Positions 573 to 49,642 of a DNA stretch of 53,466 bases are shown piece after piece. The notes below the pieces were generated by a model that was given only the letters and a program-made list of their open reading frames with translations, was not told the DNA's origin and did no database searches. The number at the start of each line of letters is the position of its first letter. Position 1 is the first letter of the stretch. Origin of the DNA: a virus. The stretch lies in the IMG/VR virus record IMGVR_UViG_3300025534_000001. One strand, given 5' to 3'. The translations under genes and the position numbers were made by a program.

Positions 573-606
573 GAGCAGCGCCTGCGGGGTGGGTGTGGCG
601 CTGCTC
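573..606 (-). terminator. Bidirectional intrinsic terminator after 614..847
   Basis: 10-bp GC stem gagcagcgcc/ggcgctgctc flanked by an A-run and a T-run. The loop carries a CGCCTGCGG motif copy. Confidence 0.8.
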
Positions 607-613
607 TTTTTTG

Positions 614-847
614 TTATGCGCTTGCCTGGCTATGTAACTGCCTGTGGAAGCTGTCCATCAGCTCTTCGAAGGCCTCATCCGATTGGACAGGCATGCCGTG
701 TTCCGCGAGAAACTGCCTGATCACGGCGCGCATGATGCGATCATAAGAGCCGTTGTTGACTTCCTCTTCAAAACGATCCGTGTTGTCGATGAAGGACCGG
801 AAAACCAGATAAGCTTCATTTACAGCGTGTTGAAGTTGCTTCGCCAT
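614..847 (-). CDS. Small acidic hypothetical protein, paralogue of 230..448
   Basis: ATG at 847 preceded by aggaggtgaaccaatc. Confidence 0.8.
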   Translation of the reverse strand: MAKQLQHAVNEAYLVFRSFIDNTDRFEEEVNNGSYDRIMRAVIRQFLAEHGMPVQSDEAFEELMDSFHRQLHSQASA

Positions 848-871
848 GATTGGTTCACCTCCTATACTACT

Positions 872-900
872 ATTATAAATGAGCGCAAGCGCAAAATCAA
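872..900 (-). promoter_or_regulatory. SigA-type promoter (TTGATT-17-TATAAT)
   Basis: Minus strand reads ttgattttgcgcttgcgctcattTATAAT. Confidence 0.6.
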
Positions 901-931
901 GAGGGTTTAACTAGCTTACAGCTTTAACGGG

Positions 932-1300
932 TTAACTTGCAGCAGCCGCAGATCTCAACAGAGTATTGCGTACTTGTTGATATCGAATTTTCAGCAGGTT
1001 GGCGATTTCGTTGCGAGCTAAGCCCATAGTTGTTAAAATACGGATTTTGGTCGCGTTGCTGAGCGTCTCGCTGTGAATAATGCGATAGAGTTGGATCTGG
1101 TTCGCAATCATTTGTTCCAGCTGTGCGAGCGGTTGTTCGCAGCCAATCAATTCGGCTACTGCCTTTACATCTTCAAATGTAACTCCTTTGGTGTTGCCCA
1201 GAACTTGCAGCCTTGCATCTATGCTGTCGACCAGGTTGTTTGCTCCAAGGCCGTTTGCGATTACTTTGATTCCTTCCCAGCTAATCTTCAAAAACAGCAT
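932..1300 (-). CDS. HTH DNA-binding protein, member 1 of the KIRxL..G....EIA.LL.(V/I)RYQ.V family
   Basis: C-terminus reads TKIRILTTMGLARNEIANLLKIRYQQVRNTLL. ATG with RBS gaggaaggtg. Confidence 0.75.
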   Translation of the reverse strand: MLFLKISWEGIKVIANGLGANNLVDSIDARLQVLGNTKGVTFEDVKAVAELIGCEQPLAQLEQMIANQIQLYRIIHSETLSNATKIRILTTMGLARNEIANLLKIRYQQVRNTLLRSAAAAS

Positions 1301-1340
1301 TTTCCTTTACACCTTCCTCAAATTTGTACTTACAACAATA

Positions 1341-1376
1341 ATTATAGCCGGGTTGGCTTGGTTTGTCAACCCGGCT
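1341..1376 (-). promoter_or_regulatory. Composite terminator hairpin plus SigA promoter (TTGACA-17-TATAAT)
   Basis: Minus strand reads AGCCGGGTTGacaaaccaagCCAACCCGGCTATAATtat. The 10-bp inverted repeat encloses the -35 box. Confidence 0.7.
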
Positions 1377-1386
1377 TGTCAAACTT

Positions 1387-1677
1387 TTAAGCAGTTTTTT
1401 CAGTTGCTCTCATTTGAACGTTTCTGACGAATTGATAGCGAACACCGAGCAACTGTGCGATTTCTTTGCGCGACATCCCAGCGGCGGTCAAGCGGCGGAT
1501 TTTCTCGCTTGTGCTCAAACCTTCCTCCAGAGCGGGGCGATTGACTTCTGCATTCGCCCGTTCGAATTCAACGAGTGCTGCGATCAGGGCTTCCTTGGTA
1601 ACTCCGATGAATTTGATCTTACGAGCGGCAGCTTCCTTCCTCAGTTCTGCGTAGTTCATGCTTTCGAATTTCGTCAT
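1387..1677 (-). CDS. HeH (Rho_N/SAP-like) plus HTH protein, family member 2
   Basis: N-terminus MNYAELRKEAAARKIKFIGVTKEALIAAL, C-terminus EKIRRLTAAGMSRKEIAQLLGVRYQFVRNV. RBS aaggagg. Confidence 0.8.
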   Translation of the reverse strand: MTKFESMNYAELRKEAAARKIKFIGVTKEALIAALVEFERANAEVNRPALEEGLSTSEKIRRLTAAGMSRKEIAQLLGVRYQFVRNVQMRATEKTA

Positions 1678-1708
1678 TTGAATGACCTCCTTAATATTGT
1701 TTGACTTA

Positions 1709-1737
1709 ATTATAACACAGGTCTACGATAGAGGCAC
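1709..1737 (-). promoter_or_regulatory. SigA-type promoter (GTGCCT-17-TGTGTTATAAT)
   Basis: Minus strand reads gtgcctctatcgtagacctgtgtTATAATtaag. Confidence 0.6.
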
Positions 1738-1761
1738 CCCCTTATTTCAAATAAAAAATAA

Positions 1762-2778: not shown

Positions 2779-5493
2779 TTACAGTAGTTCGCCTGCGGCA
2801 ATAATCTTCTTGGTGTCGCCGCGGAATTTTCGGAAGGTGTCCAGCGAACATTTCACCTTTTTCTTGCTGCCATCTTCTTGCTTGGCTTCCCAGCTCACAG
2901 TTTGACTTTGGTAATCATAGCTACACAGGCTACCCCAACGATAGCCGATTTCAAAGTCTGCTTCGAACGGGATATCGGCGTTGATCAGATCTTTGGGCAC
3001 AGACGTCATAACTTTCTTTTTCAGCTCCGCGATTTGCGGCAAGAAATTAGCGCGAACTTGCGTGATGATTGAGTCGTGAACAGAGTTCATGACGTAAGCT
3101 ATAGGTATTTCTTTGTTTCCACGTTTCACGTGCATGGTCTCGAGCGTATTAACGATGGTAATGGTCGACAAAAGCGTGCAGTCAGAAGCAGTGCTTTGGA
3201 TTGGGAAGTTGCCTGCTTCATTCATGATCGCCCGTTTGTTGTCCTCCGTAATCAAGCCATAGAAACGTTGACGACCAGTCGGCGTAGTGTAGACGATACC
3301 TTGTAACGGTTCATTTCGACGAGCATCCATAAATGCTTTGGTCTCAGGTTGCGGACGGAACCATTTTAGGATCATCTCACGTGCTTCCTTGATCGAGATC
3401 TTGAACTCCTGAGCCAGAGTATATTCGGTTCTACCATAGGGGATGCCGAAGTTGACAGCCTTGGCTCGAACCCTCTGCTCTTTAGTGAAATCGGGACCAT
3501 ACAGCTCAATAGATACTTCATCATGCAGATCGCGTCCGTCGGTATAGATCTGCTTCAGCCATGGTGATCCACCAAGAACAGCGAGTACGCGGAGTTCCGC
3601 TTGCGAGTAGTCGGCTTGCAGAATCACCCATTCGCCGAACTCTTCCGAATATTCATCATCCGGCTCGGCAACGAAGATGTTCTTGATCATCGAGTCACGC
3701 GGAATGTTGTGCACATTCGGATCCGAGGACGAGAGGCGGCCGGTTTCTGTGCCATGCAGATTGAATGTCGAATGAATCTTGCCGTCTTCTTCCCAAACGA
3801 GCTGATCCAGGCCGAGAACGTAAGTCGAGTAAGCTTTGCTGTCTTTCTTGAACGCATCCAACGTGCTGATAAACCGTTGAACGCGTTCGTCGTCGATGTT
3901 ATCCAAGTACCACTTTCGAGCATCTTTGTCTGCCGACATTTCTTTCTTCTTGTACAGAGGAAGCTTCAGTAAGTGATACATGACATACTTCAGCTGTTGA
4001 TGGCTGTTCGGATTGAAGATACGCCCATTGGTCGGTTTCGGTGGCTTTGTTGGATTCGGCGGCTTCTTACCCTTGCGTCGCCCTTCTTTGTTCCATTTAT
4101 CCATAGCGATCTGAGTCCACCACGTGCAATATTCCTGCACGTCGAATCCGAATTCCAAAGCCATCTGATTCATATCGTCCAGGCGCTGCTCGAGCAGCGG
4201 CTCGAAATGCTCTTTCAGCTCGGCCGTGTATTCTTTGTCAGCAGGCATACCTGCAATCTCAATCTTTGCATAGGCATTGGCACCGCCGATCAACAGCTTT
4301 TTATACAGAAGATCGACATTCCGTCCTTTAGCGCGTTCGGCGTCCAGCATTTCATCCAGAACGCGGCTTACACCCATACCATAGCCAACGTCTCGAGCCA
4401 GATACTTATGCAGAACCGGCTTCGGGATATCTTCATAATCCTGGAAGCCAGGCATGGCTTTGTACTTGTTGATTTCGTGTTCCCACGGCTCGACATACAG
4501 CAGCTCGACGGCAACTTGCTCCAGGTCGTGAGTACCACGCCGTTCATTGATGACGTAGTGCTTCAGCATAGTGTCCTGGTCAACGCGTGCTTTGATACCG
4601 TGCTGCCAATGAAGGAATTTTATGTCGAATTTACCGTTGTGCCATTCCCATTCGATGTTGTCATCTTCCATTAAGGCTTTCCAGTAAGGGTAAACCTTTT
4701 GAGAATGGATAATGTTCTTATCAAAGATGATTGCCAAGTCCGGTTGCCAAGAGAAGCCTTGACAAATGATCTGATGCTTCTTGAAGTTGAAGCCCTTAGT
4801 TTCGATGTCCGTGTAGATGTGGTTGAAATCACGACGCATGTGTTCGATCGCCATAATCGCTTTGTCCTCGTCCGTGATGACATAGTGTGTTACATCCGGA
4901 GGCTTCACTTCTTTACCAGGCGCCCAATTCAGTACAGAAGGAATTTTCTGGAAGTCCGCAGCGAACTCATGGAAAGCACTAGGCTGTTCCATGGCGTATC
5001 GAGGGTGATGTGTGAAGATGACGTAAGCTTGCAGCTCCGCGTCCCAGTAAGGCATTCCGCGACGCGTAGACAATCTGCCAGCGTTTGTTCTGCTCATAGC
5101 GCGCAGTGCGACTTCGCCGAGGACCATTATGACCTTTGGTCGCACGGATTTCACCTGCGCGATGAGTCTGTCGCGGCAGGCGGATAGTTCGAGCATCGTC
5201 GGTTGTTGTCCGTCAACGGGTGTGCACAAAACAGCGTATGTGCCCATCCATTGGTCTCGGCTGAATCCGAGATTTTCGAGGGTGAGGCGGACGAGCTGTC
5301 CGCCCCGAGAATCAAAAGCGTCATTGGCCAAAACATCGGCCATGATAGGTGCTTGCGAAACTACTACAATCGGCCGATGTTCCTGCGGTACGGCCTGTCC
5401 GAGACAAGGCCTACCGTTCAGTGTACACTGTTCGCACTTAGCCAGTGCTTTGAACTGGTTTACGACCACCAATTCGCCCACCTCAACATACAA
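2779..5493 (-). CDS. Family A DNA polymerase with 3'-5' exonuclease and an N-terminal family-4 UDG-like domain
   Basis: The N-terminal ~190 aa are UDG-like (VVVSQAP...GGQ...FTHHP). Exo motif YTDIETKG. Pol motifs DYSQAELRVLA, RVRAKAVNFGIPYG and VHDSI. The TTG start at 5493 is uncertain. Confidence 0.9.
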   Translation of the reverse strand: MYVEVGELVVVNQFKALAKCEQCTLNGRPCLGQAVPQEHRPIVVVSQAPIMADVLANDAFDSRGGQLVRLTLENLGFSRDQWMGTYAVLCTPVDGQQPTMLELSACRDRLIAQVKSVRPKVIMVLGEVALRAMSRTNAGRLSTRRGMPYWDAELQAYVIFTHHPRYAMEQPSAFHEFAADFQKIPSVLNWAPGKEVKPPDVTHYVITDEDKAIMAIEHMRRDFNHIYTDIETKGFNFKKHQIICQGFSWQPDLAIIFDKNIIHSQKVYPYWKALMEDDNIEWEWHNGKFDIKFLHWQHGIKARVDQDTMLKHYVINERRGTHDLEQVAVELLYVEPWEHEINKYKAMPGFQDYEDIPKPVLHKYLARDVGYGMGVSRVLDEMLDAERAKGRNVDLLYKKLLIGGANAYAKIEIAGMPADKEYTAELKEHFEPLLEQRLDDMNQMALEFGFDVQEYCTWWTQIAMDKWNKEGRRKGKKPPNPTKPPKPTNGRIFNPNSHQQLKYVMYHLLKLPLYKKKEMSADKDARKWYLDNIDDERVQRFISTLDAFKKDSKAYSTYVLGLDQLVWEEDGKIHSTFNLHGTETGRLSSSDPNVHNIPRDSMIKNIFVAEPDDEYSEEFGEWVILQADYSQAELRVLAVLGGSPWLKQIYTDGRDLHDEVSIELYGPDFTKEQRVRAKAVNFGIPYGRTEYTLAQEFKISIKEAREMILKWFRPQPETKAFMDARRNEPLQGIVYTTPTGRQRFYGLITEDNKRAIMNEAGNFPIQSTASDCTLLSTITIVNTLETMHVKRGNKEIPIAYVMNSVHDSIITQVRANFLPQIAELKKKVMTSVPKDLINADIPFEADFEIGYRWGSLCSYDYQSQTVSWEAKQEDGSKKKVKCSLDTFRKFRGDTKKIIAAGELL

Positions 5494-7451: not shown

Positions 7452-8093
7452 TTAGGACCGAATCAGATCAAGAACTTCTTTACGGGCCGCACTATTATTA
7501 CGAAAAGCACCCCTCATATACGAGGTTACTGTGGCTGCGCCCGGCTTCATCACACCGCGTCCACACATGCAGTAGTGCTGAGCTTCGATTACCACAGCCG
7601 TGCCGATCGGTTGCAGCTCTTGTTGGATGGCATCGCCGATCTGATTTGTCAGACGCTCTTGTACCTGAAACCGCTTGGCATAGCCATCGACCAGGCGGGC
7701 GAATTTCGAAAGTCCCGTGATCCGTCCGTTCGGAATGTACGCGATGTGCGCCTTGCCGAAGAACGGTGCGAAATGATGTTCACAGAGCGAATTGAACGTG
7801 ATGTCCTTGACCAACACCAGCTCATCGTGATCCACATCGAAGGTCTTGCGCAGATGCAGCGCCGGATCTTCTTCGTAACCCTTCGTGTACTCCAGAAAGG
7901 CTTTGATCACACGGAACGGCGTTTCTTGCAAACCATCACGAGCAGGATCATCCCCGCAGGCGACAATCAATTTGCGAAGAGCACCTGCGGCAGGTTCGAG
8001 GAGCTCGTAAATCTCGGTGTTGTCGATGTAAACGGGGCGCAGTGCTTTGAGTTTCTGGATTTGTTCTTCGGTGAATTCGAATTCGTGCTGCAT
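7452..8093 (-). CDS. folE: GTP cyclohydrolase I
   Basis: [20 protein letters not shown] signature. ATG at 8093 with RBS gagaggag. Confidence 0.9.
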
Positions 8094-11167: not shown

Positions 11168-14084
11168 TTGGTTTCCTCCTCATAATTTTTATCAGGTGAA
11201 GGCCATTAGGCGTAAGCGCCCACTGACCGTTCCCTTTCACGTAGATGATGTTGTTCTGCGCCAAGTAATGAACATGGTCGCGCAGGATTTCCGGCTCGTA
11301 GCCAGTCAGCTGTTGCAGCTGTGTGAATGAGAACACCTTCATCAATTTGAAGCCATCGAGCAGTTCCGGATAAGATTGCAGGTATACCTTAACCTTCTCG
11401 AAAGCTTCGGAGCTGAGGAAGCGCTCTTCTCGAACCTTCTCGGAATACTGCTTGTAACCCATAGAAGGTTTGTCGTACGCTTCTTGTTGTACTTCGGCTA
11501 CGAAATGAACGTGCTCCGGCTTAACGATGACTTTTTCGCAGGTCTCGTCCGTGCTGAACACTCGAGCTGCTGCGGCAACTGCCATCTTAGCCAACTTGAT
11601 GCGGTGATTCGCACCTTCAACCAGAGGGATCTTCGAAGTGTATTTCTTGCTGAACTCTGTAGCGTATTTCAGGATCAGTTCCTCAGCTTCCTTCTCGAAG
11701 ATCACCTGATTGTTCTTATGGATGTTACCCAGGTTACGCGACCAAGCCCACAGTACCAAAGTATTGCAGAGCTCGGAAGTATAGCGGTGTGGTACCGGAT
11801 CGCGTTCACTGATGTCCTTGTTTATTTCGCTTTCAGGCACCTCACCGGACGCTGCTGTGACGGCGTGATCAAAACGGGCGATGTCTTCGTTGGCACCGAT
11901 CAGTTCTTGAATTCCTTCAACACCGTACTCCATATCATCCAACGACTTACCTTTGCGAAGGTTAGAGATCCAGATCAGCCGCGTACGCGCATTTGTCTTT
12001 TCCTGCCTGATCTTGGTTAGCTCAGCTACACCCAGTGAACGAATACCGGACAGTTGACCAATCTGCTCGTGAGTCAAGCCAGAGACCTCGTCGATAATAA
12101 ACAAACCGCGATCGTTCAACGGAATTTTACCCCAGGTAAGCATCCAGTTGTTGCCGCCTGCACCTTGCTGTAGACCTCCGAGCAAACCGGCAAATGTTGT
12201 GCCTTCACCTGCGCCGTATTCGCCGAGCTGGTAGTGGTAAGCCATCCACTGTGCTGTCTCGGATTTGCCTGTACGAGTATCGCCCAGGACCAAAACTTCT
12301 AACCAGCCTTTATGTTCGACTTTGTGCTGGAAGATGAAGCGCAAGACGGAATGGTAGCACAAGTCATAGGCAATCATCAGGTCTCGACGTCCGAAGATAC
12401 GAGAAACATTGTATTCCAGGTCGGCATGAATCTCGTTGAATTTTTCTCGGATGGTCTGTCCCGGTGCAACTTGGAATATCTTTAAGCGCTCTTTCATCTC
12501 ATCCGTTAGCCTGAATGTTTCGATGCTAGACTGGATCGGATCAGCCTCGAGCACCAAGAAAGTCGCGCCTTGTTGCCAAGGATCAGTTGTCCGAATCGCC
12601 TTCATCTCGTATGTGCGGTTAGTGTCGATTCGCGTTGTTTTGGTCGGGTAAATATGAAAAGCCGACTGATGGAAGTGCGAATCAGACTGTACCGCGCCCG
12701 GGGCTTTAGCCGTTTGCACCTGCGGCGATATGAGAAGCTCTTCGATGTTTTGCCATTCGTCGACGCTCAGGTCGAAGAGGTCGCAGTTGCGCGGGATTTT
12801 CCCGAGCTGCTTGATGGCATGGTTCTTCTGGTTGTTGTGTGCTTTGATGAACAACAATGTTTCGTTTGAAGTCGGCTTAAGCTCAATGGTCATTTTGCCG
12901 TTCATAGCGAAGATGCCGCATGCCTGGCATTTTTGTGCCTCGGGATTCATCTTCTTACAGGTGAACTTCAGTTTGCGTTCAATTGTAAACGGCTGTTTGC
13001 CTTTACCGACGACCAAAGCGTTGAATTTTACAGGTTTGTTCTGGTATCCCGGGTCAAGAGACTGTGCCAAAGATATGGGTTGGAAAAGTTCGTCTGGCAC
13101 ATCTTCTCCAGTGCTGATGGTTTCATCCTTGGGAACATAAAGCGAAGCCTCTCGCAGAACCATGTCTGCAAAATCTTCTCGAGTGTTTCCCTGGAGGATG
13201 AAGTCAGTGAAGTCAGCGTTCTTGGGTTCAGGAATTGGAAGTCGAGGACACATCCAAATCTCTTTGGCGATTCCGTGAAGTCGCCGAGCGACACGTTCCA
13301 TCCCTTCGCGTCCCTGTGGATCATTATCATAGCACAAATAGACGACCTTTCCCCAAAAGTAATTTTCAGCACCTTTCGGAAAAACGCTGGCTCCGCCTGT
13401 AGAAGAAATTGCCCTAATTCCGAGTTGAAGAGCAAGTAGGGCGTCATGCTCTCCTTCAAAGATGACAATGCGGTCGGATTTGAAGAGCTGCCGGATGGGG
13501 AATAAACGTGCGTTACCATAACCGCCTTCACCTTTCTTTCGGGAGTGGTTGATCATCTTTTGCTTGGAGTCCGTCAAAGAATACTTACGGATGTTAACCC
13601 AATGCCCATAAGGCCCCATGATCGGGATGGTGTAGCGCTTAAGTTTGTCATCCCACCCGATAAAGTACTTCTTAATAGTATCGATCGTGAAGCCGCGCTT
13701 TTTCATGTAAGCCTGTAGGGCTTCTTCGTTGTTGAGCAGAGCCTCGTGAAGCTCCATGACGTACTCGTGCTTGATCGGCAGAATCGGTTCTTTACCTGCC
13801 AGGATTTCATCAACGACCATCTTTGCGACCGGGTACGGCACATCGTACAGCGTTTCGATGAAGCGGATAGCATCCCCGCCACCTTCCGACATCGTACCGT
13901 CTTCGCGTTCTTTGGCGCCGATCGAGCTGTCGCCGAAGTCCTTCCAAAAGCCGGTATTCAAGTTGATGGACATCGAGGGCGTCTTTTCGTCGCGGAAGAT
14001 GGAGTTGACCATCACTTCTCCGGAAATCCCTGGTGAGTCAAGACCTTTGAAAAAGTGCATCCAGAAGTGCTTATATGTGGCCAA
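11157..14084 (-). CDS. Primase-helicase fusion: Toprim (DnaG-like) N-terminal half plus an MCM/AAA+-like C-terminal half
   Basis: Toprim: IFEGEHDALLA...CYDNDPQGREG. AAA+: VLVLGDTRTGKSE and LFIIDEVSGL. The likely start is the TTG at 14084, 7 nt after GGAGG. Confidence 0.75.
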   Translation of the reverse strand: MATYKHFWMHFFKGLDSPGISGEVMVNSIFRDEKTPSMSINLNTGFWKDFGDSSIGAKEREDGTMSEGGGDAIRFIETLYDVPYPVAKMVVDEILAGKEPILPIKHEYVMELHEALLNNEEALQAYMKKRGFTIDTIKKYFIGWDDKLKRYTIPIMGPYGHWVNIRKYSLTDSKQKMINHSRKKGEGGYGNARLFPIRQLFKSDRIVIFEGEHDALLALQLGIRAISSTGGASVFPKGAENYFWGKVVYLCYDNDPQGREGMERVARRLHGIAKEIWMCPRLPIPEPKNADFTDFILQGNTREDFADMVLREASLYVPKDETISTGEDVPDELFQPISLAQSLDPGYQNKPVKFNALVVGKGKQPFTIERKLKFTCKKMNPEAQKCQACGIFAMNGKMTIELKPTSNETLLFIKAHNNQKNHAIKQLGKIPRNCDLFDLSVDEWQNIEELLISPQVQTAKAPGAVQSDSHFHQSAFHIYPTKTTRIDTNRTYEMKAIRTTDPWQQGATFLVLEADPIQSSIETFRLTDEMKERLKIFQVAPGQTIREKFNEIHADLEYNVSRIFGRRDLMIAYDLCYHSVLRFIFQHKVEHKGWLEVLVLGDTRTGKSETAQWMAYHYQLGEYGAGEGTTFAGLLGGLQQGAGGNNWMLTWGKIPLNDRGLFIIDEVSGLTHEQIGQLSGIRSLGVAELTKIRQEKTNARTRLIWISNLRKGKSLDDMEYGVEGIQELIGANEDIARFDHAVTAASGEVPESEINKDISERDPVPHRYTSELCNTLVLWAWSRNLGNIHKNNQVIFEKEAEELILKYATEFSKKYTSKIPLVEGANHRIKLAKMAVAAAARVFSTDETCEKVIVKPEHVHFVAEVQQEAYDKPSMGYKQYSEKVREERFLSSEAFEKVKVYLQSYPELLDGFKLMKVFSFTQLQQLTGYEPEILRDHVHYLAQNNIIYVKGNGQWALTPNGLHLIKIMRRKPNED

Positions 14085-14098: not shown

Positions 14099-14617
14099 TC
14101 ACACGATTGTCGGGGGCCTATCAGGGAAGTACTCGCCAGATGCAGTACATTCATTGCACACCCATCTGCCTTTGCTAGGGTTCGTACTGCATTGTACGTT
14201 GGTCTTCACCACATTGCCGTTTTCATACTCGAATCGCTGAATACCACAGTTTGGACAAGAATCAGGTGCCCCGTAATTGATGTTCTCCTCCGATGTATGA
14301 ACGCGGTTGCCCCTCGGATTCACGTGCTCCAAAAAATCATCTGGTTCATCAACGATTGTCGGCGTTTGACGAATAGGCGAAGGTGGTGTAGGATCGATCA
14401 TGATTTGAGGAGGACTAATCACAGTTTGTGAAGGAGCCGCCTCATCAGGAAAGTGCTTTGCGTACACCTGCGGGAATTTCTGTCGTGCGAGTTCTTTGGC
14501 GCATTGGCGCAGGTATCCGCTTCTGGACGTGGACATGATGCGGGCCATCTCGTCCAGGAAATCGATGAAGCTGGGTTCTGCGGAGAACGGGATCGGCTTG
14601 GCCCTTACATCGGACAT
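14099..14617 (-). CDS. Ribbon-helix-helix (CopG-like) N-terminus plus a C-terminal zinc-ribbon protein
   Basis: KPIPFSAEPSFIDFLDEMARIMSTSRSGYLRQCAKE, then CPNC...CNEC. ATG at 14617 with RBS aaggag. Confidence 0.6.
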   Translation of the reverse strand: MSDVRAKPIPFSAEPSFIDFLDEMARIMSTSRSGYLRQCAKELARQKFPQVYAKHFPDEAAPSQTVISPPQIMIDPTPPSPIRQTPTIVDEPDDFLEHVNPRGNRVHTSEENINYGAPDSCPNCGIQRFEYENGNVVKTNVQCSTNPSKGRWVCNECTASGEYFPDRPPTIV

Positions 14618-15472: not shown

Positions 15473-16686
15473 GCTTTAGCTTGTTCGCCCTTCATCTTAG
15501 CATTATAATCCCGGATCATTTGCATCAGGATCGGGATGGTCGGATTGACAACAAACTTGCCGAGAGCCGAAGTTCTGTCCTTTGCCATGTACTTGCCCGT
15601 GTTCTGCAGAAGCAGAATCCGGACCGTCTCTTCGGACTCGTTGACGTACGAATAATAGTAGCCGACGATGTCCACGAGACCCGGTACTTGATACATCAGC
15701 TTACCAGGAAGATCCGGACCGACCGTGACTTCTTTGGTCTTCTCGTCCGTCTTCTCAGCAGGCAAAGCAGCCCAAATCTTGTGAATCGGCAGAGCACGGA
15801 AATCGCGAATGAGTTCCTTGATGTGGCTCTGATTCTTGCCCCACTCACGCGGAGACGGCACGTCGGGGTCCCGGGTCGGATCGTCCTTGACGACCTGCTC
15901 CATGATTTCGCGCATGTCATATTGCTGGATCTCCGTCAAGGAGTCGATCGCAACCGTGCGATAGATCGGCACGACGAAATCTTTGCGCTCTTCTTCAGGA
16001 ATGCGGAAGAGGATACAAGCGTTCGTATGCCACCGCTCGATTTCCTTTTGATCGTTGTTGCGTTGTGCCTTGAGATACTGGTCGCGGATATGGCAGTATT
16101 GCTCCAGCCAACCTTTGAACTCTTCGACGGTCGAGAACTTGTAGACCTTGACCCGCTTGATACCTTTCTTGAAGCGGATCGTGGCCTTACCGGATTCGGC
16201 GTCCAACAAGATGACAGAAGCCGTCTCCGGATCGTCTTGAGCCGTACCTATCAAGTACGTCTTCCCGACCCCGGAAGGTCCATAGATCAAGATATTAAGC
16301 CAATCTTCCGTGTCTTCGTCGCCGATGTCCTCCATCTCGAAGCCCAACGGAGGCAAAGCAGCAGGCACAGCCTTTACCGGCTCCGCTTTGTTTTGCGCAG
16401 GCGCCTCTTCTTCCTGCTTCTGGATCTGGGGTTTAGGTGCCGCACCGCTTGATGCGCCGGGCTTGACCACACCAGCGTTTCCGCCTGCGGGGGTGATTTT
16501 GACGGTTGCTGCGGACTTGGGCGCGGTTCGTACTCCGCCGAGGCCAGGTGGCAAATTGTTTTCTTTGCCGGGCAGCGGACTGCTGGTTTTCGGCGGCTCC
16601 TCTTCTTGAGGCGGTTGCTGTTGAACCTTTGCTTCTTGCTCCTCTTCAGGAGTCGGCTTCTTCTTCTTCGGTTCTTCTTTCGACAT
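15469..16686 (-). CDS. AAA_24 / Sak4-like RecA-fold ATPase with a ~130-aa Pro/Glu/Lys-rich disordered N-terminal extension
   Basis: ILIYGPSGVGKT Walker A and VILLDAE. The N-terminus is low complexity (PKKKKPTPEEEQE...PPLGFE). Confidence 0.75.
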   Translation of the reverse strand: MSKEEPKKKKPTPEEEQEAKVQQQPPQEEEPPKTSSPLPGKENNLPPGLGGVRTAPKSAATVKITPAGGNAGVVKPGASSGAAPKPQIQKQEEEAPAQNKAEPVKAVPAALPPLGFEMEDIGDEDTEDWLNILIYGPSGVGKTYLIGTAQDDPETASVILLDAESGKATIRFKKGIKRVKVYKFSTVEEFKGWLEQYCHIRDQYLKAQRNNDQKEIERWHTNACILFRIPEEERKDFVVPIYRTVAIDSLTEIQQYDMREIMEQVVKDDPTRDPDVPSPREWGKNQSHIKELIRDFRALPIHKIWAALPAEKTDEKTKEVTVGPDLPGKLMYQVPGLVDIVGYYYSYVNESEETVRILLLQNTGKYMAKDRTSALGKFVVNPTIPILMQMIRDYNAKMKGEQAKA

Positions 16687-19676: not shown

Positions 19677-20399
19677 TTAATTATGATCTTTGAGTGCATT
19701 GCGCCGTACTTCGAATTGTTGACCTTCTTCTACGCCTGCGGCAAAGGCTGCGGCGCGGAGCAATTCGTTGGCGGTGGCGTTCTTATGTGCGGTGAACTGG
19801 CTCTGCCTGGGCTTGACTTTGTTATCGATATAATCGACCACTGCCGGGTGCTTTTCGATAACGGCGAGCCAGTTGTTTTCGGCAACCTGCTTTTCGAACT
19901 TTTCTTTCAGGCCGGTAAGAAACCCTTCCGTGAACGCATCGCGCAAGCCGTGCATTGGGTGTCCTTTCGAATACATCCACCGAGCATATTTATCCGCATG
20001 ATACTTGATGGCATCGAGTGCGAACTGATAGACTTCAACCGCGAGCTCGACGTCTTCTTGTAGACCGACGAAAATGATTTGCTGCGGGGTTCCGGGCTTA
20101 TTGCGTTGCTTTGAAGGCCTGACGCCTACCAAATAGACGACCCGGAAATTATCAGCAATGATGCGCGCCAGGGAGCGATACCACCAGGGCATGTTACGTG
20201 ACGAGTATGATGCGTATCTTTCCACCACCTCCGGCTTGCGGTCAACGTCGACGGCATCTACTTGACTCATAGAAATGTTGTGCTCAGCCATCAGCTTCTG
20301 TGCCATCAGAAGTGCGTTCTCAGATTCATTGATGTTCGACTTATCGACGGCCAGTGCCAACAGCTTCTTCACGCGCGCCAATACTTTTTCTTGATTCAA
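19677..20399 (-). CDS. DUF2786-family protein
   Basis: The N-terminal KVLARVKKLLALA...SENEALLMAQKLMAEH-like helix pair is typical of DUF2786. Confidence 0.6.
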   Translation of the reverse strand: MNQEKVLARVKKLLALAVDKSNINESENALLMAQKLMAEHNISMSQVDAVDVDRKPEVVERYASYSSRNMPWWYRSLARIIADNFRVVYLVGVRPSKQRNKPGTPQQIIFVGLQEDVELAVEVYQFALDAIKYHADKYARWMYSKGHPMHGLRDAFTEGFLTGLKEKFEKQVAENNWLAVIEKHPAVVDYIDNKVKPRQSQFTAHKNATANELLRAAAFAAGVEEGQQFEVRRNALKDHN

Positions 20400-22161: not shown

Positions 22162-22562
22162 TAATGATCGCCTCCCACAGTCATATAGTACAAAGCATGC
22201 CGGCAGGCGTCACGTGCATGTTTACTCAGACCCGTCCAAAAACCCAGTCGACGTAGTTTGTTGTCATCGAAAAGCTGCTTGTGGTCGGGGCCTTGTTCGA
22301 TCAGAGCAATTCCTTTCAGGTAACAGGTATGTTTGATTGCTCCGATAACCTCGACTTCGGGAAAGCTAGACCAGGTCTTGTGCTTTGCCTTCCAGGGATA
22401 TAGACGAAACGCCTCTACTACAATTATATTAGGTTCGACTTCAGTTATCAAGCGGTCCACCAAATCGAAGTAGTTGAAGTCGCCTGCGGCAATGTCGTGG
22501 GGTGAGTTGCTGAATACTGCGTACCCGGTGGTTCCTCCGGGGTCGAATGCTATGCCTCTCAT
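22143..22562 (-). CDS. RuvC-like Holliday junction resolvase
   Basis: GIAFDPGGTTGYAV, VVEAF and HARDACRHALY (RNase H-fold acidic residues). Confidence 0.7.
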   Translation of the reverse strand: MRGIAFDPGGTTGYAVFSNSPHDIAAGDFNYFDLVDRLITEVEPNIIVVEAFRLYPWKAKHKTWSSFPEVEVIGAIKHTCYLKGIALIEQGPDHKQLFDDNKLRRLGFWTGLSKHARDACRHALYYMTVGGDHYWVSRL

Positions 22563-33877: not shown

Positions 33878-34263
33878 ATGTCTTCGAGGACTTCTTCGTC
33901 GTCCTCATCGAAGCCGGACAGCGACAGGATTTCCATCGAGAGCTTCGCCAGCTCGCCGGCCAGCAGCACCTTCTTCACAGCATCCGCAGGCGTAGCTGCC
34001 TGGAATTTCTCGAGGATTTCCGGCGAGTTCCACTTCGGTTCGACGCAGGATTCTACGATGATCAGAGAGCTGAATTTCTGCTCGTCGACGACTTTTCGGC
34101 GCTTGTTGCCTTTGCCTTCATAGAACGTGCATTGTTCTTGCATACGATCGATGACATCGCCGGCAAGTGCGCGGATGGTAAAATCGACGCCGAAGCGCTT
34201 CATGTAAACTTTCTTCTCGACCACCGTATCTGCGTTCAGAATGGCTTTCAACACATCGGACAT
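33868..34263 (-). CDS. Tail assembly chaperone (XkdN-like)
   Basis: Position between the tube and TMP genes. Acidic C-terminus. Confidence 0.7.
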   Translation of the reverse strand: MSDVLKAILNADTVVEKKVYMKRFGVDFTIRALAGDVIDRMQEQCTFYEGKGNKRRKVVDEQKFSSLIIVESCVEPKWNSPEILEKFQAATPADAVKKVLLAGELAKLSMEILSLSGFDEDDEEVLEDIKN

Positions 34264-36692: not shown

Positions 36693-37033
36693 AGGTAGTC
36701 ATCCCTTTCAACCGTGACTTCGATGTGATGGTCGCGGATGTTCACAGGGGTGTACAGCTTGTATTTGATCCCGTTGAACACCATCTTGTCGTTGACTCGA
36801 ACATCTGCTGTCGGCAGAAACTGGACCTGCATAGTCTCGACGAATTTGCTTCCTGGTGTGCCTTGAACCGTCCTCAGCGACCCTTTGTACACATAACAGG
36901 GAACACCAGTCAGATCAGGCTCTTCAGGGTAGTAATACGTCTTTTCCCCGGGAACACCATATCCTCCGCCGCTCGTACTTTCCCGCAGGTGGTATATGTC
37001 GCAGGTATGAACGAGGAGTGCTTCGTACGACAT
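36689..37033 (-). CDS. Head-tail adaptor (XkdH/YqbH-like)
   Basis: Synteny. ATG at 37033 lies 10 nt after GAGGAG. Confidence 0.55.
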   Translation of the reverse strand: MSYEALLVHTCDIYHLRESTSGGGYGVPGEKTYYYPEEPDLTGVPCYVYKGSLRTVQGTPGSKFVETMQVQFLPTADVRVNDKMVFNGIKYKLYTPVNIRDHHIEVTVERDDYL

Positions 37034-37437: not shown

Positions 37438-37779
37438 TTACGCCTGCGGGGGAGTGGTTGCTCCTTCGTTGCCTTTGCTTGCCGGCTTTGTGGAAGCAGC
37501 CGGTGCTGCGGGCGCCGCAGGTTTCTTGTCTTCTTCGACTTCGGTCTTCGAAGGCGCCGGCGGTTTTTCTTCCTCTTTCAGCGGTTTCGGAGGTGCCGGC
37601 GGCTCGGCCGTCGTTGCTTCTTTGCCCACGCTCACCTTGAATTGAGGATTGCGCGACAGGTACTTGTACAACGGTTCCGGCACTTCTTTCTTCACACCGT
37701 TTTTGAAGTTGATGCCGTCAACCATGAAGTCGACGCCTTTGACCAGCGTTGCATAGAACTTGGATGCCAACTGCATCAC
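37438..37779 (-). CDS. Hypothetical protein with a Pro/Ala/Lys-rich tail (possible capsid-associated protein)
   Basis: ORF directly after the capsid gene. The C-terminal half is low complexity. Confidence 0.6.
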   Translation of the reverse strand: MMQLASKFYATLVKGVDFMVDGINFKNGVKKEVPEPLYKYLSRNPQFKVSVGKEATTAEPPAPPKPLKEEEKPPAPSKTEVEEDKKPAAPAAPAASTKPASKGNEGATTPPQA

Positions 37780-41347: not shown

Positions 41348-41407
41348 TTTTGAGGAGACTCCGTTTTCGGCACTACAGGTCATCCGCTTTCTGTGAATCG
41401 CCTGCGG

Positions 41408-42530: not shown

Positions 42531-43478
42531 TTAAGTTCGACTAGCTTTGGGTCGCGGGGGTTTCTTATACTTTGCATAGTCGAACTCTGCCATGGCTTGA
42601 CGTCGCAGCTCTTCTTTTTCTTCTGCGCTCAAACCCAGGATCTTGGAATTGACAACAGGCTGAAGAACACACCGACAATAAACACGTTCCTTAGCTGGAA
42701 GTTGAGGATCTCGCGGATACATAGCACTATAACCTCCTACATCGAAAGCCTCGTCAACGGGGATTTCTGTGCCACTCAAATCAACGTGGTTTTCTCTCGG
42801 CTTGATTTTGCGCGGCCCAGAATGACGCCAACGCTTCATTTCAACAGCTGGGCTTTGCAAATACGCTTCTTGCTGAGATGCTGCGTTAGCTGTGAGGATT
42901 TCTGTGATGGCTGTGGCGCGAGCTCGGTTCCGGCTAAACTCCGGCAAATCCTTCAGCGCTTTGACAGCATCCGGAATTCCTTTGCCTTCATTTATAGTAT
43001 CTACCAAAACTCGCTCAATTGCACGGTGCGAAGTTAATCTCATCAGCTCAGCCAGATCAATCGACCAATCCTCAATCCACGCAACTGTTCTTCCGGACAA
43101 AGTGTTGAAGGACAAATCTTTGTCCAACTCTTCCATGATGCGCGATACCACCTGCGGAATGGTGGCGTTGAAGAATTCGTATGCCGCCTCTGCCATTTCT
43201 TCTTCGAAGGTGTCGGAGGCAAGCAGCTCCGGGAATACGGTTTCATAGAAGCGCTGGAGCGTCAGAGGATCATCCTCTTTGAAGATGTACCCTTCCAGGC
43301 CGTCAACAAAGTGCTTGCGCTCGTTGCGGAGAAGTTTGGCAATCCGCTTTTCGAACTTGTTGATCTGGTCGACTAGAAAGTCCACGTCCTCGAATGCTTC
43401 CAGTTCGTCCTTGAGATCGTCATCCTCGGCTTTGGTAATCAGCTCGACCAGATCAAGAACTCTTTGCACGGCCTGCAT
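42531..43478 (-). CDS. Head morphogenesis protein (SPP1 gp7 / Mu F-like)
   Basis: Position after the portal gene. RARATAITE...W....D.R.C..C-type C-terminal region. Confidence 0.75.
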   Translation of the reverse strand: MQAVQRVLDLVELITKAEDDDLKDELEAFEDVDFLVDQINKFEKRIAKLLRNERKHFVDGLEGYIFKEDDPLTLQRFYETVFPELLASDTFEEEMAEAAYEFFNATIPQVVSRIMEELDKDLSFNTLSGRTVAWIEDWSIDLAELMRLTSHRAIERVLVDTINEGKGIPDAVKALKDLPEFSRNRARATAITEILTANAASQQEAYLQSPAVEMKRWRHSGPRKIKPRENHVDLSGTEIPVDEAFDVGGYSAMYPRDPQLPAKERVYCRCVLQPVVNSKILGLSAEEKEELRRQAMAEFDYAKYKKPPRPKASRT

Positions 43479-44997: not shown

Positions 44998-45002
44998 TGT
45001 AC

Positions 45003-46930: not shown

Positions 46931-46960
46931 ATTATACCTTATCCCGTTACTTGGAGACAA
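46931..46960 (-). promoter_or_regulatory. Promoter (TTGTCT-18-TATAAT) ahead of terS
   Basis: Minus strand reads ttgtctccaagtaacgggataaggTATAAT. Confidence 0.5.
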
Positions 46961-47108
46961 CAACAATCGAGATCAAAATAAGCGCGAGCACGGCGACCAT
47001 TGCGATAAACATCGCTTGTGTTCGCTCCTTCTGTGCGCGCGAATCAAGTCCGCAAACCAACAACAGAAAGGCGAACAGAAAGCCAATAATTTGAAATGCG
47101 ATCAACAT
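46947..47108 (-). CDS. 53-aa two-TM membrane protein, below the ORF-track cutoff
   Basis: Hand translation: MLIAFQIIGFLFAFLLLVCGLDSRAQKERTQAMFIAMVAVLALILISIVVVSK. RBS gaagggtga. Confidence 0.55.
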   Translation of the reverse strand: MLIAFQIIGFLFAFLLLVCGLDSRAQKERTQAMFIAMVAVLALILISIVVVSK

Positions 47109-47259
47109 CGAGCATCACCCTTCAGAATAAAATATAGGTGACCCGTTGTTCGGTGGGTCAGACCGCCGCCGTCCGCTCCTTACTGCCCTGCGGTCAAGCA
47201 GTCCAAAGGGTGGGTGGGGTATATGCAGGAGCGGCATGCATTTATTATACCCTTGCCCT

Positions 47260-47577
47260 TTATTTCGCTGCACTAAGTTTTTCGGTCAACTCCATAAACC
47301 ATTGTTTGTCGCCTGCGGCGAGGGCTATGTCTGCGAGGGCCATGATCTCTTCGCGTGTGTTCGCTCTTCGGCTGCGCATGGGGCGTACGTTGCGCAGCGG
47401 GAATGTCTTTTGGTGGCCGACCAGCGCGGGAACGTCTTCGCATTGAGTGATATGCACGAGCACTTCGGAAAAGAAGTGGTCGAGCTTCAATACGAAGCCT
47501 ACGCATTGGTAATCCACATCGGAGCCTGTGGCCATGACCCATGCGCCCGGTTCGATTTCAGCTTTGCTGGTTATCAT
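47260..47577 (-). CDS. IDEAL-domain protein
   Basis: C-terminal ADIALAAGDKQWFMELTEKL matches the IDEAL motif. The ATG at 47577 is preferred over 47604. Confidence 0.6.
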   Translation of the reverse strand: MITSKAEIEPGAWVMATGSDVDYQCVGFVLKLDHFFSEVLVHITQCEDVPALVGHQKTFPLRNVRPMRSRRANTREEIMALADIALAAGDKQWFMELTEKLSAAK

Positions 47578-47839
47578 TAGCTTGCGACCCCCTAATAGCC
47601 GCAAGCAGGTTGTTTATGCCGCGGCCGCGTTTTCGCGTTTTGCGCTGGATAAACAAGCCCGTGGTCGCCCAGAAGTCGTATTCGTCGTTGATGATGAAAT
47701 GACCATTAGGCTTCTCGACCAAAGAGGTGATGATGTCCTTGTTTACGTAGAGCAGTTCACGAGCGCGTTCGTAGTTTTCCCAACGCTTCTGCCTACGCAT
47801 TTCTTTGAACGCGCGATAATCATCTCCGACATCGCCCAT
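47558..47839 (-). CDS. Hypothetical 93-aa protein
   Basis: ATG directly after the upstream TGA. RBS ggagg. Confidence 0.65.
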   Translation of the reverse strand: MGDVGDDYRAFKEMRRQKRWENYERARELLYVNKDIITSLVEKPNGHFIINDEYDFWATTGLFIQRKTRKRGRGINNLLAAIRGSQANDNQQS

Positions 47840-48403
47840 TCAGATTGCCTCCTCTTCTTTGAGAATATAGCCATACAACTGTCGCCGGCCGAACTTGCGT
47901 GCTTCTTTTAGCGAAGGTATGTATAAGTCAAGCTTTCCCTCGGTGATGGCTCCTCCGCGATCTTCGCACACCCTGACGCCGATGTCTTCAATGTAAATTT
48001 TAGTCCCGAACGGTATACTTTTCGGGCATGCAATGGTGTGATTTTCTTTGACGCGTTTGCCACTGGCAGTAATGCCATATTCGGGATGATCAGGCGTCTT
48101 GCCGGTTGACTCTGGTCCTGCCGTGTATGCGGTCACTTCGAATAAAACTTTCTCGCCCCGGGGTTCAGAAGGTTGCGCCTTCTTTTGCTTCAGTTGTTGT
48201 TCAGCTTGATCCAGGATATCCTGAATCCGCTGATCGTGTATTGCGTTTTGTTGCTCCATCTGGCTGATCATCTTCTCGTAGCGCTCGTTGAGGCTTTTTC
48301 GTTCCTGGATGACTTGATCGAGCAGGTACTGGTTTCTGAGTCCCCACAGACAGACCGCAATTAGTAGCAGGAGGGCAGAGATGTCCAGCACTTTTCGTAT
48401 CAA
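47840..48403 (-). CDS. Membrane-anchored coiled-coil protein with a C-terminal 3D (MltA-like double-psi barrel) domain
   Basis: N-terminal TM segment (ISALLLLIAVCLWGL). C-terminus FEVTAYTAGPESTGKTP...GITASG...IPFGTKIYIEDIG.R.CEDRGGAI.G..LDLY. Confidence 0.75.
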   Translation of the reverse strand: MIRKVLDISALLLLIAVCLWGLRNQYLLDQVIQERKSLNERYEKMISQMEQQNAIHDQRIQDILDQAEQQLKQKKAQPSEPRGEKVLFEVTAYTAGPESTGKTPDHPEYGITASGKRVKENHTIACPKSIPFGTKIYIEDIGVRVCEDRGGAITEGKLDLYIPSLKEARKFGRRQLYGYILKEEEAI

Positions 48404-48428
48404 ATAGTCTCACCTACCTTTTGATTTA

Positions 48429-48458
48429 ATTATACTACACCTGTGTATGACCGTTCAA
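48429..48458 (-). promoter_or_regulatory. Promoter (TTGAAC-18-TATAAT) ahead of the 3D-domain gene
   Basis: Minus strand reads ttgaacggtcatacacaggtgtagTATAAT. Confidence 0.55.
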
Positions 48459-48482
48459 CAATTATTTAAGGACCCAAATAAA

Positions 48483-48494
48483 TCTCTCTCTCTC
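48483..48494. repeat. (TC)6 microsatellite in AT-rich island 3
   Basis: Read directly as tctctctctctc. Confidence 0.9.
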
Positions 48495-48612
48495 AGCAAT
48501 ATGTTGTTTTTACTTATTATTTATTTTCTTATTAGTAATATAACAAAATTATATAATATAGATATAAGATATATACAAAGATAGAGAAATTTGCGGGTGT
48601 ACACATAAGGAA

Positions 48613-48629
48613 AGCCGTCTTTGACGGCT
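48613..48629 (-). terminator. Hairpin terminator candidate ending the early region
   Basis: Stem agccgtc/gacggct with T-rich flanks on both strands. Confidence 0.5.
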
Positions 48630-48649
48630 CTTTTGGCTTACGTTTAGGG

Positions 48650-48751
48650 TTATTCGCCATCCTTGCTTTTCCCTTTGCCGACGAGATATCCTATGAAAAA
48701 GGAGTTTGCGTAAAGGAGAAGGATAACGACAGTTCTAAACACGTATTCCAT
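48650..48751 (-). CDS. 33-aa single-TM peptide, below the ORF-track cutoff
   Basis: Hand translation: MEYVFRTVVILLLYANSFFIGYLVGKGKSKDGE. AGGAG lies 3 nt upstream, which is short spacing. Confidence 0.35.
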   Translation of the reverse strand: MEYVFRTVVILLLYANSFFIGYLVGKGKSKDGE

Positions 48752-48762
48752 GATCTCCTCGT

Positions 48763-49029
48763 TCAAAGCTCACACCTCCCACACGGGCAATCGTTGACGT
48801 AGACGGCGGATTCTTCGGGAATTTCGCCACGTAGCATGTTTACAGCTTTGAGTGCATCCTGAATGCGCTGGATGTTTTCCAGCCGTTTCAAAACATCATC
48901 CAGATGGTTCCGCAGATCGATCGTATCCCCGGCGTAGTATCGCAATTGCTGCTCTTCCCAATAGAGGTGGGTGAGGAGCTGACCTCTTGTCAGCCCCTCC
49001 AAGTTTTCAGGCAGTTTCAATTGCTCCAT
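48763..49029 (-). CDS. Hypothetical 88-aa protein (C-terminal CPCGRC)
   Basis: ATG with RBS ggagg. Confidence 0.65.
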   Translation of the reverse strand: MEQLKLPENLEGLTRGQLLTHLYWEEQQLRYYAGDTIDLRNHLDDVLKRLENIQRIQDALKAVNMLRGEIPEESAVYVNDCPCGRCEL

Positions 49030-49642
49030 CTTCGTCCTCCTCTTCTTCCGAAGTTTCTTTTTCGCCTGCGGGGACTTCGCGTTCTTCGAGCATGTCGGCT
49101 TCGGCTTGCGGGTCCGTGATTTGCTTGAGTTGCATCAGCAGCCCGAGCTCTTGGTCGTGCTTGTCAGGACCGAGGTGTTCGAAGTGCGCAATCAGAAGGT
49201 CGATTATGATGTGCGGGTTCACCAGTACGAGTTCGCCGTTTTTAAGTTTCTCGGCCAGCGATTCCCATTTCATAGGGATGGCGTGCCAAATGCCCTTACC
49301 GTGTGAGGTTTCACCCCAAGCCAGGTAATCCGAGATCTTGTTGACCTGAGTGATTACCACACCTTTGCGAGCGTTGTGCATGAGTAGTGCGCCTTTCTTA
49401 ACGCCAGTCGTACGTTGGACCACTTGCGCACGGGTTGTGCCTTTACCTTCAGCTTTACGCTGATCTTTCTCAGCCCGCCAGGCATCCATTTCAGACACAC
49501 TGATCATGCGCTTACCGTTCACTTCATGGTACGGGGCGCCTTGCTTGCGACACCAACCATTCACGACTTGCACGGCTCCGAGGTTGCGCATTTCGGTGTA
49601 TTGGGCTACGGTAACCAGGTCATCCGGTAATTTGGTTGACAT
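49007..49642 (-). CDS. Protein with an N-terminal excisionase/MerR-like HTH and an acidic C-terminal tail
   Basis: LVTVAQYTEMRNLGAVQVVNGWCRK...ISVSEMDAWR. RBS aaggagg. Confidence 0.6.
   Translation of the reverse strand: MSTKLPDDLVTVAQYTEMRNLGAVQVVNGWCRKQGAPYHEVNGKRMISVSEMDAWRAEKDQRKAEGKGTTRAQVVQRTTGVKKGALLMHNARKGVVITQVNKISDYLAWGETSHGKGIWHAIPMKWESLAEKLKNGELVLVNPHIIIDLLIAHFEHLGPDKHDQELGLLMQLKQITDPQAEADMLEEREVPAGEKETSEEEEDEDGAIETA

Follow-up and report, generated by a model that had tools for sequence, protein, structure and literature searches.

A dispersed 9-mer under selection in a clade of Gram-positive phages and a candidate protein family that may read it

What would keep a short asymmetric DNA word scattered through a phage genome, mostly inside genes and mostly in one orientation? 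The question is raised by IMG/VR virus record IMGVR_UViG_3300025534_000001 (53,466 nucleotides, nt; this whole stretch is called the window below) and its 9-mer CRCCTGCGG, which an earlier reading of the sequence, here the original prediction, took either for a Chi-like site of AddAB/RecBCD or for a phage-specific recognition word serving packaging, replication or the targeting of deazaguanine modification. We find that selection acts on the word, that the word follows a phage clade, and that a small, putatively DNA-binding protein family of the same clade is a candidate to read it. The first and last 128 nt of the window (1-128 and 53339-53466) are identical, so the window is a circularly closed assembly with a true length of 53,338 bp; no word site lies in the terminal overlap. 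All called genes are on the minus strand (69 by a codon-usage coding-score model, plus 2 overlapping open reading frames [ORFs] that were added), so the plus strand is the template strand and the sense form of the word is CCGCAGGYG.

Recounting the word gave the same figures as the original prediction, with 18 copies of CRCCTGCGG on the plus strand (12 CGCCTGCGG and 6 CACCTGCGG) and 4 on the minus strand, and with its 7-mer core CCTGCGG at 23 and 5 copies, respectively; one of the listed starts moves, from 43150 to 43149, and the others are correct. The 22 observed matches compare with an average of 0.93 and at most 6 after dinucleotide shuffling of the window, and CGCCTGCGG is the commonest 9-mer in the window, with 12 copies versus 0.41 expected from a third-order Markov model. 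Three kinds of codon-preserving shuffles of the coding sequences (CDS), in which synonymous codons were exchanged within genes or genome-wide or whole codons were permuted, never reached the observed counts either. Within the CDS, the sense word occurs 16 times versus 1.2-1.8 expected and the antisense word 4 times versus 0.6-0.7, leaving an excess of about 9-14-fold. Moreover, the word has a defined shape. Among one-mismatch variants of CGCCTGCGG, just two exceed 1-2 copies, one with A at position 2 (found 6 times) and one with C at position 9 (4 times), the last three positions are tightly constrained, and the edges are sharp, with flanking positions below 0.7 bit. The sense sites are read as xCC-GCA-GGY-Gxx (x-Ala-Gly-x) in 12 cases and as CCG-CAG-GYG (Pro-Gln-Val/Ala) in 4, and the 2 others, at 579 and 41399, are intergenic, as first described.

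The next question is whether the word belongs to this genome, to its host or to a wider lineage. The window phage has a contractile tail and encodes a replication/recombination module (PolA with an N-terminal uracil-DNA glycosylase [UDG]-like domain, a Toprim-MCM-like primase-helicase, a SNF2 helicase, a PD-(D/E)XK exonuclease, AAA_24, DUF669 and a RuvC-like protein), together with a complete preQ0 pathway (FolE, QueD, QueE and QueC) and a DpdA-like transglycosylase. An unbiased k-mer scan of Weizmannia coagulans phage Youna2, a siphovirus of 43% GC, placed CCGCAGGTG and CCGCAGGCG among the top 9-mers, and the general sense form of the clade, CCGCAG-R-Y-G, occurs there 20 times on the coding strand and 5 times on the other (20/5). 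In Bacillus subtilis phage BSP7, the top 9-mers include CCGCAGATG and CCGCAGGTG, and the count is 26/10. The replication and deazaguanine module is all that these two phages have in common with the window; PolA, primase and recombination proteins are about 37-45% identical and the Que enzymes up to about 65%, and the packaging and tail genes of the two phages are unrelated to those of the window. The word is also enriched in five metagenomic relatives; it is found 7/2 times versus 0.14 expected in L100 and 7/0 times in the 30.6-kb L138 contig. A PolA-alignment scan of IMG/VR yielded 80 loci, more than 50 of them with PolA-DpdA-Que synteny, and the word is enriched in L100 and L138 alone, whose PolA is the closest (40-44%) and whose primase has 36-37% identity. 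Single-sequence IMG/VR scans added one close relative with the primase-helicase and none with DpdA.

Non-clade phage DNA amounting to 2.73 Mb holds 93 copies versus 93.3 expected, compared with 4.4 per 10 kb in clade members. No enrichment is seen in unrelated B. subtilis phages (SPP1, 2/0 with 0.66/0.15 expected; 50 kb of the SPbeta prophage, 0/0; 019DV002, 0/1) or in any portal or sheath relative from IMG/VR, GTDB genomes and metagenomes (best identities 68%, 53% for Brevibacillus prophages, and 63%), and the structural module thus does not carry the word signal. The word-bearing clade comprises the window phage, its metagenomic relatives, Youna2 and the BSP7/BSTP group of B. subtilis, and its genomes of 53-55 kb hold about 20-36 copies each, embedded in CDS. 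The word therefore belongs to the phage clade and not to the host, and tracks the clade across at least three hosts. A phage-specific recognition word, as originally proposed, stands in this general form; a role in packaging is excluded, since word-bearing phages have unrelated packaging and structural modules, and deazaguanine targeting is unlikely for the reasons given below. The word was also considered as a DNA uptake sequence (DUS/USS) and does not behave as one, being specific to a phage clade, and Bacillus DNA uptake is not sequence-specific. A literature search by word sequence returned primers only.

Comparison among relatives provides further evidence of selection. Two contigs of Joint Genome Institute (JGI) sample 3300011102, at about 72% nucleotide identity to the window, have four sites, all homologous to those at 16482, 14465, 12717 and 43149. 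The 9-mers are intact there while their flanks diverge and carry indels; in these alignments, just 6.1% of all 9-nt stretches are unchanged throughout (P = 1.4e-5). In the relative L184, one copy lies close to where the ORF before RNase H ends, presumably the PolA end. Youna2 and BSP7 have many site positions in common but share few with the window, the N-terminus of the RuvC-like gene being one, and since each genome nonetheless has about 20-36 sites, individual sites turn over while density is maintained. At one FolE position, Youna2 and BSP7 carry a sense copy (S/A-AGDNP) and the window an antisense copy (VACGDDP). The spacing is even as well. In the three complete genomes, the gaps between sense sites have a coefficient of variation (CV) of 0.45, 0.54 and 0.48 (P <= 0.002) and minima of 1044, 1187 and 730 nt, and all 36 sites of BSP7 taken together have a CV of 0.56 and a largest gap of 3.3 kb. 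Sites occur about once per 1.5-3 kb, with no long gaps. Taken together, the codon-aware nulls, the use of several frames, the intergenic copies, the sites kept in the relatives and the even spacing bear out the original claim that the excess reflects selection on the DNA word itself and not on a peptide.

The 4.5:1 orientation bias, which the original prediction treated as a signal, fared differently. Sense copies are enriched 9-15-fold and antisense copies 6-20-fold in the three genomes, and the sense fractions of 0.80, 0.82 and 0.73 compare with 0.65-0.77 from coding constraints (binomial P of 0.12-0.80); for the window alone, the fraction is 0.80 versus 0.65-0.72 predicted (P = 0.12-0.30). 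Both orientations are selected, and the sense excess is what coding constraints alone give. Thus, the strand bias is no evidence of polarity, and with it goes the main argument for a polar element of the Chi type.

If the word is read by a factor of the clade, which protein might do so? Five window paralogs (Table 1) form one small family with a predicted C-terminal helix-turn-helix (HTH) and differing N-terminal parts, most of them with an N-terminal SAP/Rho_N (helix-extension-helix, HeH)-like motif. The family has a putative recognition helix, [IV]RYQxV[YRF][QN]V, that hardly varies. Searching about 180 loci with the five paralogs by tblastn, we found homologs in word-bearing genomes only, with the same helix and just downstream of PolA, and none in about 75 other PolA-centred loci. 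The members in the annotated phages are at 47618-48232 in BSP7 and at 13674-13973 and about 52448-52903 in Youna2. The family is very rare, as a search of 5.8 billion proteins returned three members, the query and two further homologs. Three contigs found solely through the HTH protein all have the word on the coding strand (3 copies in the 7-kb contig and one each in those of 3 and 3.2 kb, versus 0.03-0.08 expected), so that in this prospective test of co-occurrence the protein predicted the word in 3/3 cases. Two paralogs match Pfam HTH_7 above the cut-off, an AlphaFold model has a C-terminal three-helix unit with a predicted local distance difference test score (pLDDT) of about 90, and comparison by sequence with solved structures gave generic HTH matches only. 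A promoter element for a sigma-4-like factor was considered and rejected, as no conserved -10-like element lies downstream of the word and the flanks are low in information.

On this evidence, the reader would be a small clade-restricted DNA-binding family with an N-terminal SAP/Rho_N (HeH) part, a charged linker and a C-terminal LuxR/sigma-4/resolvase-like HTH, whose near-invariant recognition helix would match the invariant CCGCAG core. Each monomeric HTH would read one asymmetric 9-bp site on double-stranded DNA. The result would be regularly spaced address tags on the phage genome, missing from host DNA, which may serve to anchor the genome, to bridge it or to bring other activities to it, possibly site-specific nicking like that of phage tf. 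With an encoded HTH candidate and at least a dozen sites over about 50-60 kb, this arrangement would resemble the dispersed sites of an element's own DNA-binding protein, such as the KorB operators of RK2 and the centromere sites of N15. In contrast to those sites, which are palindromic, mostly intergenic and few, the sites of the window clade are asymmetric 9-mers that lie in genes in any frame, evenly, at about 20-36 per genome.

Several points weigh against an HTH reader. Binding of the word by this family is suggested by co-occurrence within one clade, and this co-occurrence is not phylogenetically independent because word and family are both confined to that clade. Equally confined, and by this measure as good a fit, are the HTH_17 gene at 49007-49642, a protein of 164 aa at 22671-23165, the RuvC-like protein, DUF669 and the clade alleles of PolA, DpdA and the Que enzymes. 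All Foldseek matches are to LuxR/GerE, sigma-4, Tfx or resolvase DNA-binding HTH domains but are individually weak (E > 0.1), and the SAP match is below its Pfam cut-off. Known dispersed operator and partition sites are usually palindromic and intergenic, and the window sites are neither. In the window and Youna2, sense sites alone are more even than all sites together, which could hint at a real strand-specific function, and no downstream function is readable from the sequence. On balance, recognition by the clade-encoded HTH family is the best-supported mechanism, quite possibly the correct one, and we stop short of calling it probable.

In the alternative that survives best, a site-specific nicking system encoded by the phage, as in tf, T5 and phiKMV, would have the word as its consensus and leave a nick at or next to each copy in virion DNA. 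Such systems are lineage-specific, and the statistics of the word closely match those of the experimentally mapped nick consensus of Pseudomonas phage tf, 5'-TACT/RTGMC-3', a 9-mer that is two-fold degenerate at two positions and occurs at 14 sites in the 46-kb genome (the T5 consensus is 5'-R/GCGCRGG-3'). In the scan applied to the window clade, the tf consensus is the top 9-mer of the tf genome (14/0 with 0.49 expected, about 29-fold), has almost no one-mismatch variants, is gene-embedded and has a smallest gap of 721 nt. Both are lineage-specific asymmetric words of about 9 nt with two degenerate positions, about 14-36 copies per 46-55 kb and a 20-30-fold excess, each the top 9-mer of its genome, with almost no near-cognate variants and embedded in CDS. 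However, tf, T5 and the phiKMV group have their nicks on a single strand irrespective of gene orientation, whereas in the window clade 18-28% of copies are on the other strand and this minority orientation is itself enriched 6-20-fold. Close convergent pairs occur as well, in FolE of the window (7954-7990, sense then antisense, 19-nt spacer) and in Youna2 (L089; 33280-33306, 9-nt spacer), and nicking both members of a pair would risk a double-strand break. Pfam and PHROGs scans of the non-structural window genes (roughly 230-24640 and 40160-53470) detected no dedicated nickase, HNH nuclease, GIY-YIG gene, methyltransferase or integrase. In addition, the hosts here are Gram-positive Bacillaceae and the phage families are unrelated. 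We therefore regard a nick consensus as unlikely, if still a serious candidate. It would be compatible with an HTH reader that directs a nuclease, for instance the RuvC-like protein of the clade.

Two further roles, both less likely than an HTH reader or a nick system, would tie the word to the replication and deazaguanine genes. In the first, the word would be a start or loading site of the clade replisome, for example a priming site of the Toprim-MCM-like primase-helicase, and its even spacing would set Okazaki-fragment length. Consistent with this, the word tracks the replication module and not the structural module. Word-bearing loci with the gene in view have a primase-helicase of at least 36-38% identity (86% in L093), and loci at 26-32% are without the word. 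Sites are spaced 1.5-3 kb apart with no long gaps, most of them would lie on the lagging-strand template if forks follow the direction of transcription, and the template 3' end, ...RYG, resembles a primase trinucleotide site of the 5'-CTG-3' type. However, known primase recognition sites are 3-5 nt, and coding constraints suffice to account for the strand bias. Moreover, Microbacterium phage Krampus, with the same primase-helicase, exonuclease, RecA-like and helicase families (primase 32% identical, no Que genes), lacks a coding-embedded dispersed word: it has the 9-mer 4/3 times versus 2.4/2.0 expected, and its top words are ribosome-binding sites and promoter-like elements. A replisome site thus appears distinctly improbable.

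In the second, the phage DpdA transglycosylase, which inserts 7-deazaguanine into DNA, would use the word as its target or as a loading site. All word-bearing genomes of sufficient length encode DpdA with FolE, QueD, QueE and QueC, so that the word, like known DpdA motifs, is found in phages with a preQ0 pathway and a DNA transglycosylase, and it is rich in G:C pairs. However, documented DpdA motifs (GA and GGC) are 2-3 nt and not over-represented, and it is not obvious why a target for modification should be kept in excess and at even intervals. Among the nearest annotated relatives of the DpdA protein are those of Campylobacter phage CP220 and Cellulophaga phage phiST, which we take to belong to the DpdA3 subfamily. 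This subfamily has been linked to complete replacement of G, and phiST has zero copies of the word. Most phages with the PolA-DpdA-Que module are likewise without the word, and its lack of enrichment in more than 50 such loci means that it is not a general DpdA target. Hence, a role in DpdA targeting is more doubtful again than one in the replisome.

That the word is a host Chi-like site attenuating AddAB/RecBCD on linear phage DNA, the first suggestion of the original prediction, now seems very improbable. Like Chi, the word is short (8-9 nt), GC-rich, over-represented, dispersed and mostly co-oriented on the coding strand, where true Firmicute Chi words are also enriched in phages. In our controls, coding/other counts are 4/0 for GCGCGTG in Lactococcus lactis phage 28201 and 5/0 for GAAGCGG in Staphylococcus aureus phi11, about one site per 9 kb and all on the coding strand, and an argument that Chi should sit on the template strand to protect rolling-circle tails was dropped for this reason. 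The word is about 3-fold denser than these Chi sites, is equally enriched in both orientations once coding constraints are allowed for, and has no polarity beyond them. Most importantly, Chi is defined by the host enzyme and common to unrelated phages of one host (AGCGG in B. subtilis, GAAGCGG in S. aureus, GCGCGTG in L. lactis, GCTGGTGG in Escherichia coli), whereas one and the same word is found here in related phages of three hosts, including W. coagulans and B. subtilis. It is not enriched in other B. subtilis phages and prophage DNA, in Brevibacillus prophage loci or in any portal relative, and AGCGG is contained neither in CCGCAGRYG nor in its complement. Finally, that codon usage, dipeptide composition or a repeated peptide gave rise to the excess is scarcely credible, for although 12/16 coding sites share the x-Ala-Gly-x frame, synonymous and codon-permutation shuffles never come near the observed counts in 3/3 genomes, other frames and intergenic copies are in use with the last three positions held tight, and the third-order Markov null matches the 2.73 Mb of other phage DNA exactly.

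Table 1. Copies of the 9-mer and candidate reader genes in the window. Minus denotes the coding strand, on which a word copy is in sense orientation; plus denotes copies antisense to genes. L numbers are handles of loci.
Feature	Coordinates	Strand	Context
Word	579..587	-	Sense CCGCAGGCG; intergenic, across stem-loop junction of a terminator-like hairpin
Word	2790..2798	-	Sense; C-terminal end of PolA (..IIAAGELL*)
Word	7954..7962	+	Antisense; FolE; convergent pair with 7982, 19-nt spacer
Word	7982..7990	-	Sense CCGCAGGTG; FolE
Word	12717..12725	-	Sense; primase-helicase, Pro-Gln-Val frame; position kept in L093
Word	14465..14473	-	Sense; 184-aa protein 14099-14653; position kept in L093
Word	16482..16490	-	Sense; AAA_24 gene; kept in L093 despite indel-rich flanks
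Word	19733..19741	-	Sense; DUF2786/DUF7168 gene
Word	22481..22489	-	Sense; N-terminus of RuvC-like gene; position common to window, Youna2 and BSP7
Word	26597..26605	-	Sense; 634-aa tail protein gene
Word	28045..28053	-	Sense; 358-aa tail-module gene 27410-28486 (baseplate J in the original prediction)
Word	28417..28425	+	Antisense; tail-module gene 27410-28486
Word	30166..30174	-	Sense; YQBQ/XkdQ-like gene
Word	31210..31218	-	Sense; 870-aa gene 31070-33682, tape measure by position and size
Word	32908..32916	-	Sense; gene 31070-33682
Word	33984..33992	+	Antisense; tail assembly chaperone-like gene
Word	36983..36991	+	Antisense; gene 36689-37042
Word	37441..37449	-	Sense; final codons of gene 37438-37779
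Word	41399..41407	-	Sense; intergenic, directly 3' of stop codon
Word	43149..43157	-	Sense; Phage_Mu_F head morphogenesis gene; position kept in L002
Word	47310..47318	-	Sense; IDEAL-domain gene
Word	49063..49071	-	Sense; clade-specific HTH_17 gene
Candidate reader	1387..1677	-	96 aa, minimal SAP/HeH plus C-terminal HTH; just downstream of PolA and RNase H; putative helix VRYQFVRNV
Candidate reader paralog	932..1300	-	122 aa, C-terminal HTH with IRYQQVRNT
Candidate reader paralog	49731..50183	-	150 aa; Pfam HTH_7 above cut-off
Candidate reader paralog	51185..51790	-	201 aa; HeH-like N-terminus, acidic linker, C-terminal HTH
Candidate reader paralog	51883..52278	-	131 aa; HTH_7 28 bits versus cut-off 23.8; closest to Youna2, BSP7 and L138 homologs
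Alternative candidate reader	49007..49642	-	Clade-specific HTH_17 (MerR/excisionase-type); also in Youna2, BSP7 and the L138 contig

The remainder of the window genome offers some context. Firmicute hallmarks include an SPP1-type holin, an endolysin and YqbF, YQBQ and IDEAL domains. The endolysin (23481-24302) combines Amidase_3 with a C-terminal SLH domain and has loose database matches in Geobacillus and Bacillus; the SLH domain indicates a host with an S-layer or a wall anchored through secondary cell wall polymer (SCWP). By portal protein, the nearest prophage relatives are in Brevibacillus, at just 53% identity. A second over-represented word in the window, TAATTATAAC (GTTATAATTA on the coding strand), contains TATAAT, a sigma-A-type -10 box. 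Its exact copies (1707-1716, 19632-19641, 41310-41319, 49685-49694, 51820-51829 and 52899-52908; nine more have one mismatch) are intergenic and immediately precede genes, in several cases those of the small HTH paralogs, and they are probably early promoters unrelated to the 9-mer.

PolA with its UDG-like N-terminus is next to the DpdA-like gene and the preQ0 pathway at 2779-11167 of the window, and the same synteny is found in more than 50 IMG/VR contigs (L100-L165) of 28-63% GC, so the PolA-DpdA-Que module appears to be widespread and mobile. PolA is a single 904-aa ORF in the window and two ORFs 0.3-0.7 kb apart in Youna2 (48613-51882) and BSP7 (44553-47456), with one small ORF between them in Youna2 and two in BSTP10 and BSTP12. 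The split may reflect an intervening mobile element or intron.

Other phages have words of their own. The locus L162 (IMGVR_UViG_3300027784_000586), from a different clade with the PolA-DpdA-Que module, carries GTACCAAAAAGAAAG between 1011 and 16507, 11/3 by strand, spaced 1.4-2.7 kb apart and situated within ORFs, with every frame in use, and it has no member of the SAP-HTH family. A different word in a locus without the HTH family fits the notion of co-evolving reader-site pairs, and coding-embedded, evenly spaced words are possibly a general phenomenon. The word GCACAGGGG(G) of the 16.8-kb L120 (IMGVR_UViG_3300035698_004233), 6/3 by strand, was not counted as a second example; its coding-strand ORF copies are all in frame 0 (Ala-Gln-Gly), so a peptide or ribosome-binding-site-like origin is possible. 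Bacillus phage vB_BboS-125 (L095, NC_048735) has the skewed words ACGCCGTA (29/7 versus 5.7 expected), ACAGCTGCAG (10/0) and AACCAGGTA (11/0); together with L162, it suggests that clade-specific words embedded in CDS may not be rare.

Few functional signals can be recognized directly in raw sequence; dispersed oligomers under selection, such as Chi, uptake sequences, FtsK-orienting polar sequences (KOPS) and the nick sites of phages, are among them. Those of phages are the least understood, and the nick sites of T5 and tf have had no known function for decades. The word described here adds a Gram-positive example, kept across phages with about 40% protein identity and different hosts, for which selection is seen in three ways (site conservation, turnover at maintained density and even spacing) and for which there is a concrete candidate reader. 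Cultured members of the clade are at hand, with BSP7/BSTP growing on B. subtilis and Youna2 on W. coagulans. A general caution also follows: in a genome transcribed in one direction, the strand bias of a coding-embedded word should not be taken as functional polarity. Going further, we propose as a speculative extension, which we think unlikely to hold, that the word serves as a “self-address”. HeH-HTH paralogs with one helix and differing N-termini would read an evenly spaced, phage-only 9-mer, possibly modified with 7-deazaguanine, telling phage from host DNA and tethering activities every ~3 kb. If this is true, what is tethered could bridge or compact the genome, belong to the replisome or the modification enzymes, nick DNA or shield the genome from a phage nuclease, and other PolA-DpdA clades would have evolved different word-reader pairs, as the L162 word may exemplify.

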